A DNA stretch of 64,000 nucleotides, from positions 17,788 to 81,787 of the forward strand of contig CAKTZA010000008.1 of NCBI GenBank assembly GCA_934635045.1. The letters are read 5' to 3'. Origin of the DNA: an uncultured Kiritimatiellota bacterium (lineage in GTDB: Bacteria > Verrucomicrobiota > Kiritimatiellia > RFP12 > UBA1067). Positions 22,957 through 24,283 of this stretch are shown piece after piece. Positions within the stretch are counted from its first letter, which is position 1. The number at the start of each line of letters is the position of its first letter. The translations under genes and the position numbers were made by a program. Below the pieces are notes generated by a model. The model was not told where the DNA came from. It made no database searches and worked only from the letters and a program-made list of their open reading frames with translations.

Positions 22957-22989
22957 ACGGCGTCGCGTTTGGCTTGCGCACGATGCGCG

Positions 22990-23075
22990 TGGAGCCGAGG
23001 GTCGGATTCGAACCGACGCGTCCTTGCGGATCCTGATTACAAATCAGGCGCAGTCAACCACTGTGCCACCCCGGC
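22990..23075 (-). tRNA. Class-II-shaped tRNA (14-nt variable arm) whose canonical 7-nt anticodon loop UUUGUAA reads anticodon UGU (Thr), although a long variable arm is expected only for Leu/Ser/Tyr; CCA encoded; identity uncertain
   Basis: Hand-folded cloverleaf. Acceptor GCCGGGG/CCUCGGC with one G-U. D-loop AGUGGUUGA with G18G19. Anticodon stem CCUGA/UCAGG. Variable arm AUCCGCAAGGACGC with UCC/GGA stem. T arm GUCGG-UUCGAAU-CCGAC. Discriminator U then CCA. Own TGGTATACT promoter on minus strand (+ coordinates 23087..23096). Confidence 0.6.
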
Positions 23076-23328
23076 GGCAAGTGGCGCGTAGTATACCATA
23101 ATTCGCGGCGTTTTTGTGCGCCGATAAATGCAAAACAATGCCAATCCCCCCCTCAAAGAAAAATTTCATTTTGCCCCTTGCGGCAAGGGGCGGGTTTTGG
23201 TATCCTGTTCACGTTGAGGTTCCACCTCTGCGGCAGGTGTTCGGCGGGTGCGTCAGGCTGTGCGGCCTGGCTCGCGGACGACGCGAAAGAGGGGTTTGCG
23301 ATTACCTCGGCTTATAGGAGTCCTCGCC

Positions 23329-23883
23329 ATGAAGACCTCCATCGCAAATGGCACATTCGCCGCTGATTGCTGGACTGACACAGTTAAGGCCAAGGGCGGC
23401 AATGGCGAAAGTTGTGAATACAATCCGAAACGAACGCTCCTAGTCTGGATTGTCGATTGCGTTTGTGCCATGCTCCTGATCGGATGCACAATCTGGGTGG
23501 CTTGCCGGTACGGCTCGCTCCCTGATCGAATCCCGATCCATTATGGTGCGAACGGAGTTGTCGATGGATATGGCAGCAAGAGCATGATATGGGCAGTGAT
23601 TGCCATTATGTGGGCGGTTGTCGGTATTGTGTCTGCGGTAGAGCAATTCCCGAGACTTTGGAATACCGTGTTTGAACGTACAAAAGAGAACCAGTGCCGC
23701 CTGTTGCCCTTGACCTGGCATTTCATGAGCACCACCAAGCTGGCCATCTCTTCCATGTTCGCATATGTCGTCGTCATGTGTGTCAGAGGCGGGGATCTTT
23801 CGCCGCTATTCCTTCCTCTCGTGCTGACGGCAGTGTGTGCCAATTCCTTGTATTGGATAATCAAGCTAGCCATCAACCGATAA
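23329..23883 (+). CDS. DUF1648-like membrane protein (SdpI/YhfL-type N-terminal domain)
   Basis: PIHYGANGVVDGYGSK motif after the first TM helix, four TM segments. GC content visibly lower than flanking DNA. Lies between two tRNA genes. Confidence 0.45.
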   Translation: MKTSIANGTFAADCWTDTVKAKGGNGESCEYNPKRTLLVWIVDCVCAMLLIGCTIWVACRYGSLPDRIPIHYGANGVVDGYGSKSMIWAVIAIMWAVVGIVSAVEQFPRLWNTVFERTKENQCRLLPLTWHFMSTTKLAISSMFAYVVVMCVRGGDLSPLFLPLVLTAVCANSLYWIIKLAINR

Positions 23884-23902
23884 ATCACCCCTTCGGATGC
23901 CA

Positions 23903-24073
23903 TCACCTGGCGAGGCGGTTGCAGTTCTCGACGGCGCCTTTCTCGTAGGAGGCGCAGGCCCGCGTGCAGCAGGGCTCGGCCTTGAACGCGCGGGCGAGCA
24001 GCTTCTGGTCGAGGAACTCGCAGCCGTTGCCGTCGTCACGCTCCTGCTGAGGGGATCGACTCGCGGATTTCAT
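23903..24073 (-). CDS. Possible small Cys-containing protein (56 aa)
   Basis: Minus-strand ATG at 24073 preceded by GAGG. Peptide MKSASRSPQQERDDGNGCEFLDQKLLARAFKAEPCCTRACASYEKGAVENCNRLAR with 5 Cys. Convergent with the DUF1648 gene. Weak evidence. Confidence 0.2.
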   Translation of the reverse strand: MKSASRSPQQERDDGNGCEFLDQKLLARAFKAEPCCTRACASYEKGAVENCNRLAR

Positions 24074-24090
24074 CCTCGGTTTAGGCCCAT

Positions 24091-24120
24091 TTGACTTCGC
24101 GGTTAGCAACATGATATAAT
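24091..24120 (+). promoter_or_regulatory. Canonical sigma-70 promoter TTGACT-N18-TATAAT for tRNA-Arg(CCU)
   Basis: ttgacttcgcggttagcaacatgatataat. Near-identical copy at 63271..63300 in front of the second tRNA-Arg. Confidence 0.6.
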
Positions 24121-24206
24121 TTCCGCCGTGTGAGTTTAGATTCCGAGGAAAATGCCGCGGATTCCACAACAAACGCACAAGACATTGAGAAAGTGAAGAA
24201 ATACGT

Positions 24207-24283
24207 GGGATCGTAGCTCAACTGGACAGAGCGACGGTTTCCTAAACCGTAGGTTCCGGGTTCGATTCCCGGCGGTCCCACCA
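24207..24283 (+). tRNA. tRNA-Arg (anticodon CCU)
   Basis: Cloverleaf: acceptor GGGAUCG/CGGUCCC, anticodon stem ACGGU/ACCGU with loop UUCCUAA, T-loop UUCGAUU, discriminator A plus CCA encoded. Confidence 0.85.

Follow-up and report, generated by a model that had tools for sequence, protein, structure and literature searches.

Transfer RNAs (tRNAs) with a long variable arm, which form class II, are stated to be those specific for Ser, Leu and bacterial Tyr (PMC4033280; PMC7609411). The nematode nev-tRNAs carry such an arm (V-arm) together with Gly or Ile anticodons; they are charged with Leu, weakly expressed, and they mistranslate (PMC3333845). Allo-tRNAs and tRNAs of the selC* type, found by metagenome mining in bacteria and phages, also have long variable arms and unexpected anticodons (PMC5389517). 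Phage T5 escapes PARIS by means of stem-mutated tRNAs (PMC12409363). Here we present a class-II-shaped tRNA gene with the Thr anticodon UGU, located on the minus strand of a 64,000-nucleotide (nt) stretch of an uncultured Kiritimatiellota genome (assembly GCA_934635045.1, contig CAKTZA010000008.1), the whole of which is called the window. Its preliminary description was based on the premise that this shape is used only by tRNA-Leu, -Ser and -Tyr, which agrees with the textbook statement (PMC4033280) but does not extend to the Thr family described below, which is an exception to it.

Our reading, to which we assign a probability of roughly 0.8 on the basis of sequence comparisons, is that the gene encodes a genuine Thr-accepting, ACA-reading elongator tRNA built on a Tyr-like class II body. 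The family to which it belongs spans three bacterial phyla, occurring in Kiritimatiellia, some Cytophagales and Eremiobacterota, and it is also found in many tRNA-rich phages. ARAGORN, which the preliminary description had proposed to run, called a tRNA-Thr of 86 nt with anticodon tgt at 22990-23075 (-), and the Rfam covariance model RF00005 scored 58.1 bits, against a gathering score of 29, over 22993-23075 (-). In the alignment to this model there was an 11-nt insertion in the variable region, and UGU fell in the anticodon columns of a 7-nt loop, UUUGUAA. By direct reading the molecule is GCCGGGG-UG-GCA[ CAGUGGUUGAC ]UGC-G-CCUGA-UUUGUAA-UCAGG-A-UCC[GCAA]GGA-CGC-GUCGG-UUCGAAU-CCGAC-CCUCGGC-U-CCA, and it contains U8, G9, A14, G18G19, G26, U33 and A37 as well as the T loop, with U73 ahead of an encoded CCA. 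The acceptor/T branch is the standard 7/5, with a 7-base-pair (bp) acceptor stem (G1-C72, C2-G71, C3-G70, G4-C69, G5-U68, G6-C67 and G7-C66) and a 5-bp T stem. The fourth D-stem pair (13-22) is a C-C mismatch, flagged by RF00005, which leaves a 3-bp D stem; the variable region exceeds 10 nt and contains a stem-loop, positions 13 and 22 are unpaired and the D loop is enlarged, as expected of class II. The minimum free energy fold of the single sequence paired the D region differently (z = -2.0), and the covariance model and the covariation reported below are more informative on this point. The anatomy given in the preliminary description (cloverleaf, 14-nt variable arm, 3-bp D stem, long D loop) was thus right in every detail, as were UGU at 34-36 of the 7-nt loop, the U discriminator, G18G19, the T loop and the encoded CCA; its manual fold stands, since the covariance model placed UGU, and not GUA, at 34-36.

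A genome scan was carried out over one genome per GTDB species with a pattern consisting of the anticodon arm followed by a T loop at class II spacing. It gave at least 119 loci, in nearly all of which ARAGORN called an 82-91 nt tRNA(UGU), and the same pattern was found on 85 IMG/VR viral contigs, mostly inside phage tRNA arrays. The numbers of family members given from here on, for Kiritimatiellia, Cytophagales, Eremiobacterota and the distinct sequences, are counted among the matches listed by the genome scan and the viral scan. A class-II-shaped tRNA(UGU) was present in about 50 metagenome-assembled genomes (MAGs) of gut and rumen Kiritimatiellia, the lineage of the window, and at least 14 Kiritimatiellia loci carry a sequence identical to that of the window. 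Two gut-metagenome contigs whose HemW is 97% identical to that of the window have the same tRNA gene with one substitution, the 60 nt upstream being conserved too. Another version, as one identical sequence, occurs in 24 Spirosoma/Cytophagales loci; the carriers in Cytophagales include Spirosoma, Fibrella and Hymenobacter. Eremiobacterota are the third cellular group, and single cases were seen within arrays of tRNA genes in one MAG each of Bacteriovoracaceae and Chryseobacterium. The comparison, which the preliminary description had suggested for related genomes, yielded 92 distinct sequences, 38 cellular and 54 viral, all of them with UGU at 34-36; the RF00005 scores of homologues were 55-63 bits.

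Covariation was examined in an alignment of 35 members of equal length, taking the cloverleaf including the variable-arm stem, with 500 shuffles and slid-partner controls. Paired cells amounted to 99.8%, compared with 28-50% in the slid controls; changes on both sides were seen in 14 of the 23 pairs, and none of the 500 shuffles reached the observed values. In the variable-arm stem all three pairs showed double changes (UA, AU, CG, GC and others) with 100% pairing, and the D-stem pairs 11-24 and 12-23 also covary. Over the 92 distinct sequences the D arm measures 17 nt in 77, and the commonest variable arm consists of 1 nt, a stem of 3 bp (57 members) or 4 bp (17), a GNRA tetraloop (58 of 91) and a final 3 nt (56). 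G15 and the final C48 are near-constant.

Regarding amino-acid identity, the bacterial Thr determinants are G1-C72, C2-G71, G4-C69, G5-C68, G35 and U36, position 73 being unimportant (PMC9976931, Table 1). The window tRNA has G1-C72, C2-G71, G4-C69, G35 and U36, and in the family G1-C72 is found in 91 of 92 members, C2-G71 in 92 of 92 and U73 in 81 of 92. The discriminator matches that of the host's ordinary tRNA-Thr, U73 being found also in the class I Thr-GGU of Eremiobacterota and the class I Thr-UGU of Cytophagales; the members from coliphages have A73, like the class I tRNA-Thr of phage T5. These coliphage members would have to work with the threonyl-tRNA synthetase (ThrRS) of E. coli, in which case no special synthetase would be needed.

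In Spirosoma, Fibrella, Hymenobacter and a Spirosomataceae MAG the class II gene follows a same-strand DUF349 gene, 56-234 nt downstream of it, and the homologous position in Flectobacillus major, Pseudarcicella hirudinis, Siphonobacter and Larkinella arboricola is taken by a 74-nt class I tRNA-Thr(UGU). The two kinds of gene have in common only G1C2C3, U73 and the anticodon arm, and what happened at this slot is, to judge from the genes compared, a gene replacement and not an insertion. An origin of the class II gene by simple insertion into the local class I gene is ruled out, as the genes differ throughout. We also considered an origin from tRNA-Tyr by a one-base shift of the loop (CUGUAAA to YUUGUAA), which is possible in principle but less parsimonious than an inherited Thr(UGU) anticodon arm, because the arm is identical to the standard Thr(UGU) one. 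A second case is offered by the Thr(UGU)-Tyr-Gly-Thr(GGU) cluster, which is widespread and is intact in Marinifilum (L037) and Anaerolineae (L069): in Eremiobacterota the cluster lacks its first member, Thr(UGU), and in 10 of 15 loci a class II Thr(UGU) gene is encoded on the other strand at a distance of 0.1-5 kb.

The meaning of ACA codons in the carriers was evaluated by aligning orthologous open reading frames (ORFs) among carrier loci and tallying, at positions of conserved context, the amino acid facing each codon. In Kiritimatiellia ACA faced Thr with a frequency of 0.84 (n=401), compared with 0.84 for ACC and 0.89 for ACG, and Ser was outside the top four residues. In Cytophagales the corresponding values were 0.76 (n=3313), 0.75 and 0.79, and Ser faced ACA at 0.06 and ACC at 0.07. 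By this measure of codon meaning ACA is an ordinary Thr codon in the carriers of both groups.

Taking into account these results, the way in which the window tRNA would function can be proposed. The parts that ThrRS would read are those of an ordinary tRNA-Thr(UGU), namely G1-C72 and C2-G71 at the top of the acceptor stem and, around G35 and U36, the anticodon arm CUGA-UUUGUAA-UCAG. The remaining body is that of a bacterial class II tRNA and comes closest to tRNA-Tyr: the D stem of 3 bp carries an 11-nt loop, G15-C48 is present, and the variable arm is composed of 1 nt, a 3-bp stem, a GNRA loop and 3 nt. ThrRS would charge this molecule with Thr, and it would read ACA and, by wobble at U34, probably ACG; in the organism of the window it would be the main or only decoder of ACA. 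Several points weigh against this proposal. The evidence for positional replacement comes from Cytophagales and Eremiobacterota and not from the window's own lineage. Pair 5-68 varies within the family; the window tRNA has G-U here, and its sister copies in Kiritimatiellia have G-C. The invariance of the anticodon stem in the 35-member alignment was imposed by the search pattern. The codon counts are non-independent, and they inform on the evolutionary meaning of ACA rather than on the charge of this tRNA. Finally, allo-tRNAs with a long variable arm and U73 have been judged compatible with serylation (PMC5389517).

This last precedent favours an ambiguous tRNA of dual identity, mainly threonylated and partly charged by seryl-tRNA synthetase (SerRS), which would cause a low-level or conditional substitution of Ser for Thr at ACA. 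We hold it unlikely, and partial serylation is nevertheless the most credible of the mistranslation readings. Recognition by SerRS involves the long variable arm and disregards the anticodon, and the bacterial Ser determinants are G73, G2-C71, C11-G24, a large variable region and G30-C40 (PMC9976931). The window tRNA matches them only by its variable arm and by two minor elements, C11-G24 and G30-C40; it has U73 and C2-G71 in place of G73 and G2-C71, and C2-G71 is an antideterminant against SerRS (PMC9976931, Table 3). In addition, ThrRS edits Ser-tRNA-Thr (PMC11415595). The variable stem has only 3 bp and is followed by three unpaired 3' nt, which is the layout of tRNA-Tyr as seen in the Eremiobacterota neighbours. 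SerRS rejects a Tyr-type layout of the variable arm. Moreover, as seen above, ACA faces Ser no more often than ACC does.

It is also conceivable, but quite improbable, that the molecule is not primarily a substrate of translation and serves as a nuclease decoy or in another pathway, a separate class I tRNA-Thr(UGU) being in charge of decoding. The abundance of the family in phage tRNA arrays and the presence of both class I and class II Thr(UGU) in four viral loci are consistent with such a role; however, everything that translation requires is conserved (the 7/5 branch, U33, A37, the T loop and the ThrRS determinants), and the slot in Cytophagales no longer holds the canonical gene. The regulatory or decayed RNA that the preliminary description had listed does not fit with a sequence that is identical across many species, that covaries and that has a conserved promoter.

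The same description had also considered a natural mistranslating tRNA of Ser, Leu or Tyr identity reading Thr codons. The nev-tRNAs do combine a class II shape with an anticodon for a class I amino acid (PMC3333845; PMC4033280), but this possibility appears very improbable. For Leu, A73 is crucial to identity, and the bacterial Tyr determinants are A73, G34 and U35 (PMC9976931). At these positions the window tRNA has U73, U34 and G35, so that the A73 of an E. coli-type Leu identity and all three Tyr elements are absent, as is the G73 of Ser; the acceptor stem is of Thr type and, as noted, holds both the ThrRS determinants and the pair that repels SerRS. A dedicated mistranslator would also be hard to reconcile with a gene that takes the place of the canonical tRNA-Thr(UGU) at its own locus in Cytophagales, with ACA behaving as Thr, and with a sequence that is identical across dozens of the listed species. 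As for a tRNA-Tyr in a shifted register, the GUA triplet one position 3' of the anticodon register and the Tyr-like body speak for it, and it is practically negligible given that the covariance model and all 92 listed homologues have a standard 7-nt loop with U33 and A37 flanking UGU, that A73, G34 and U35 are lacking, and that in Eremiobacterota a normal tRNA-Tyr(GUA) adjoins the class II Thr gene.

The class II tRNA-Thr(UGU) is also carried by phages, in which both architectures occur. The window tRNA is 88% identical to a viral member, versus 75-78% to members of other cellular clades. A BLAST search of GenBank phages showed that at least 100 cultured T5-like phages of E. coli and Salmonella, Tequintavirus included, encode a member of 87 nt, which is annotated as tRNA-Thr(tgt). 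In phage slur09 (L216, NC_028840 104885-104971) the 87-nt class II allele has an unchanged anticodon stem, as in about 100 other phages, whereas T5 (L217, NC_005859 28667-28741) has a 75-nt class I tRNA-Thr(UGU) whose anticodon stem is GUUGC/GCAUC, with UAAGC instead of UAAUC. Both alleles occupy the same slot of the tRNA region, His-Gln-Gln-...-Thr-Ile-Met.

In the viral loci (L131-L215, e.g., L137, L135, L136 and L142), which were chosen only for their class II Thr gene, ARAGORN also called 81-94 nt long-armed versions of tRNAs that are normally class I: Asn(GUU) nine times, Lys(UUU) four, Ile(UAU) five, Met five, Cys five, His four and Pro four, together with Gly(UCC), Val, Glu, Gln and Trp. 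From this long-armed set the tRNA-Lys of L137 was the one inspected by eye, and its arm, UCC-GCAA-GGA, is that of the window tRNA; the tRNA-Gly(UCC) of L142 shares its D arm with the class II Thr tRNAs.

Considering the escape of T5 with stem-mutated tRNAs, the T5 and slur09 alleles, the 88% identity to a viral member and the other long-armed viral tRNAs, we put forward the tentative and rather doubtful suggestion that the long variable arm is an adaptive shield, acquired by phages against anticodon-arm nucleases and later moved into cells, where it displaced the canonical gene. Toprim tRNases such as AriB of PARIS cut tRNA-Thr(UGU), tRNA-Lys(UUU) and tRNA-Asn(GUU) at the 3' strand of the anticodon stem (40-43), next to which the arm emerges, and the effect of the arm would be steric. 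V-arm-bearing versions of class I tRNAs in phages might then represent a second route of nuclease evasion besides point mutations of the stem, and one of them, tRNA-Thr(UGU), would have passed into cells and supplanted the canonical gene in Kiritimatiellia, in some Cytophagales and in Eremiobacterota.

With respect to expression, the preliminary description had attributed to the gene a promoter of its own. The extended -10 element TGGTATACT could be located, and its region is 100% conserved with loci L009 and L010, the sequence farther upstream being divergent; no -35/-10 pair was detected upstream of the tRNA by a two-hexamer sigma-70 scan. Among the matches listed, Kiritimatiellia have 47 distinct upstream regions that are otherwise diverged, and 46 of these contain the motif TGnTAWAHT ending 10-20 nt before +1; in Cytophagales 35 of 36 have TAnnTTTG in its place, each motif being specific to its lineage. 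We take the latter to be the Bacteroidetes -7 promoter motif. Many Kiritimatiellia loci (e.g., L016, L020, L038, L057 and L084) contain the promoter-like motif a second time in inverted form (TATTATACCA, which is TGGTATAATA reverse-complemented), some 25-35 nt farther upstream, and where the neighbour is known (L020, L057) this copy faces a divergent ileS gene. The arrangement suggests that these could be back-to-back promoters. The coordinates of the tRNA gene, its parts and the promoter element are collected in Table 1.

Table 1. Position of the tRNA-Thr(UGU) gene, its structural parts and its promoter element in the window
Feature	Position	Strand	Description	Basis
Class-II-shaped tRNA-Thr(UGU) gene	22990..23075	-	86 nt including encoded CCA (22990-22992); discriminator U73 (22993)	ARAGORN, Rfam RF00005
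Acceptor stem	22994-23000 and 23069-23075	-	3' strand CCUCGGC (22994-23000) with 5' strand GCCGGGG (23069-23075)	Sequence, RF00005, covariation
T arm	23001-23017	-	GUCGG-UUCGAAU-CCGAC	Sequence, RF00005, covariation
Variable arm	23018..23031	-	14 nt: A44, 3-bp stem UCC/GGA, GNRA tetraloop GCAA, unpaired CGC ending in C48	
Anticodon arm	23032-23048	-	CCUGA/UCAGG	ARAGORN, RF00005
Anticodon UGU (34-36)	23039..23041	-	In 7-nt loop UUUGUAA	ARAGORN, RF00005
D arm	23050..23066	-	3-bp stem GCA/UGC; 11-nt loop CAGUGGUUGAC with A14, G15, G18G19	Read from sequence, RF00005
Extended -10 promoter element TGGTATACT	23090..23098	-	Ends 14 nt upstream of tRNA position 1	Conservation

The neighbours of the gene vary in Kiritimatiellia, the most frequent being a divergent ileS and, downstream, purL; in the window they are HemW and a DUF1648 gene. 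HemW homologues at 70-76% identity (L001, L004, L005 and L007) had no tRNA beside HemW, and in UBA1629, one of the genomes whose HemW homologue lacks an adjoining tRNA, the gene is on another contig (L094). The location of the tRNA is therefore not fixed in this class. A search with IleRS homologues for an outgroup slot returned only gut Kiritimatiellia, at 82% identity or more. The surrounding 64 kb encode a Mur ligase, FtsW, ribosomal protein L25, a class I aminoacyl-tRNA synthetase of the Glu/Gln type, MgsA, MetK, HemW, aconitase, PEPCK and IMPDH; this is ordinary housekeeping chromosome, and no phage genes were seen near the tRNA. At 23248-24283 of the window the DUF1648 gene and tRNA-Arg(CCU) stand in another order than in the near-identical genomes of L009 (6409-7299) and L010: the window has tRNA-Thr (-), DUF1648 (+) and tRNA-Arg (+), and in L009 and L010 tRNA-Thr (-) is followed by tRNA-Arg (+) 117 nt away and then by a DUF1648-like ORF. 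Directly past the CCA, in the gap that separates the tRNA from the convergent HemW gene, there is a small hairpin, GCGCA-UCG-UGCGC, at 22976-22988 (-). In L009 and L010 its stem is retained and its loop altered, and with no run of U after it, it is not a classic intrinsic terminator.

Some other observations were made during the scan. Eight loci (L089, L093, L059, L064, L097, L107, L114 and L115) are filed as Muribaculaceae, Alistipes onderdonkii, Lentisphaerae or Verrucomicrobia and have a Kiritimatiellia-type tRNA all the same; L089 and L093 have 64-68% GC, and L093, L107 and L114 have a Kiritimatiellia IleRS neighbour, which suggests bin contamination or outdated public labels. The Chryseobacterium bin (L050:5100-7108) and the Bacteriovoracaceae bin (L071:1281-6847) contain dense arrays of divergent tRNAs that look like phage or mobile tRNA arrays; each includes a class II Thr(UGU), and the anticodon is 2 or 4 nt long in some of the calls. 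The 93-nt 'tRNA-Gly(acc)' called by ARAGORN at L061:3643-3735 lies within a GC-rich GGTTC/GGGCTC repeat and is almost certainly a false positive. In Marinifilum a repeated element of about 100 nt (L033:77-186, L036:73-182, L037 on the minus strand, three copies in L108, and L110) resembles the 3' two-thirds of tRNA-Thr(UGU), with the anticodon arm, a hairpin CCCGAGGCUUCGGG at the variable position, the T arm and the 3' strand of the acceptor. At its 5' side an unrelated hairpin (GAAUCG...CGAUU) stands instead of the acceptor 5' strand and the D arm. The copies in L037, L108 and L110 are beside or between tRNA-Thr genes, and ARAGORN made no call on the element.

As a conserved class II tRNA-Thr has apparently taken the place of the canonical gene, membership of class I or class II would not be tied to amino-acid identity, and the extra arm would be tolerated by ThrRS, EF-Tu, the ribosome and the processing enzymes. 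For annotation, it should be considered that tRNA finders label these genes Thr and that isotype-specific models may flag a conflict, which is not to be taken as evidence of mistranslation. Since T5-like coliphages carry either allele and Spirosoma is culturable, charging, decoding and nuclease sensitivity can be tested in E. coli. The phage copies are already labelled tRNA-Thr in databases and their architecture appears not to have been discussed; in the full-text literature, with incomplete coverage of subscription journals so that a prior description is possible, we found neither a class II tRNA-Thr nor phage tRNAs with a V-arm described.

The canonical class I tRNA-Thr(UGU) of the thrU type shares with the class II family G1-C72, C2-G71, usually C3-G70, the Thr discriminator of the host, the anticodon arm CUGA-YUUGUAA-UCAG (as in Flectobacillus, Larkinella, Marinifilum and Anaerolineae) and, in Cytophagales, the slot downstream of DUF349. 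It differs in that the class II family has a variable arm of 13-16 nt with a covarying stem instead of a 5-nt loop, and a D stem of 3 bp with an 11-nt loop instead of a stem of 4 bp; elsewhere its sequence bears no relation to that of the class I gene which it replaces. The body is shared with class II tRNA-Tyr(GUA) of bacteria, which has the same 3-bp D stem and 11-nt D loop, an arm of 1 nt, 3-4 bp, a tetraloop and 3 nt, and a similar T arm. In Eremiobacterota the tRNA-Tyr adjoining the class II Thr gene has the variable arm C-GCGC-GAAG-GCGC-UAC, of the same layout. The window tRNA differs from tRNA-Tyr in having U73 and not A73, UGU and not GUA, and a Thr-type acceptor starting with GCC and not one of the GGG/GGU type.

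With the nematode nev-tRNAs (PMC3333845) the family has in common the class II shape and the anticodon of a class I amino acid, but it holds determinants that match its own anticodon and it replaces the canonical gene. The allo-tRNAs (PMC5389517) have an 8/4 or 9/3 branch of acceptor and T stem, a Sec-like D arm and Ser or Ala identity, in contrast to the window tRNA, which has a 7/5 branch and Thr determinants and so falls outside the branch structure that defines them. The PARIS-escape tRNA-Thr(UGU) of T5 (PMC12409363) is, like the slur09 allele with which it shares its slot, a phage-borne replacement for the host tRNA-Thr(UGU); while the T5 molecule is of class I, 75 nt long and with a changed stem, the class II allele retains UAAUCAG and adds the variable arm.

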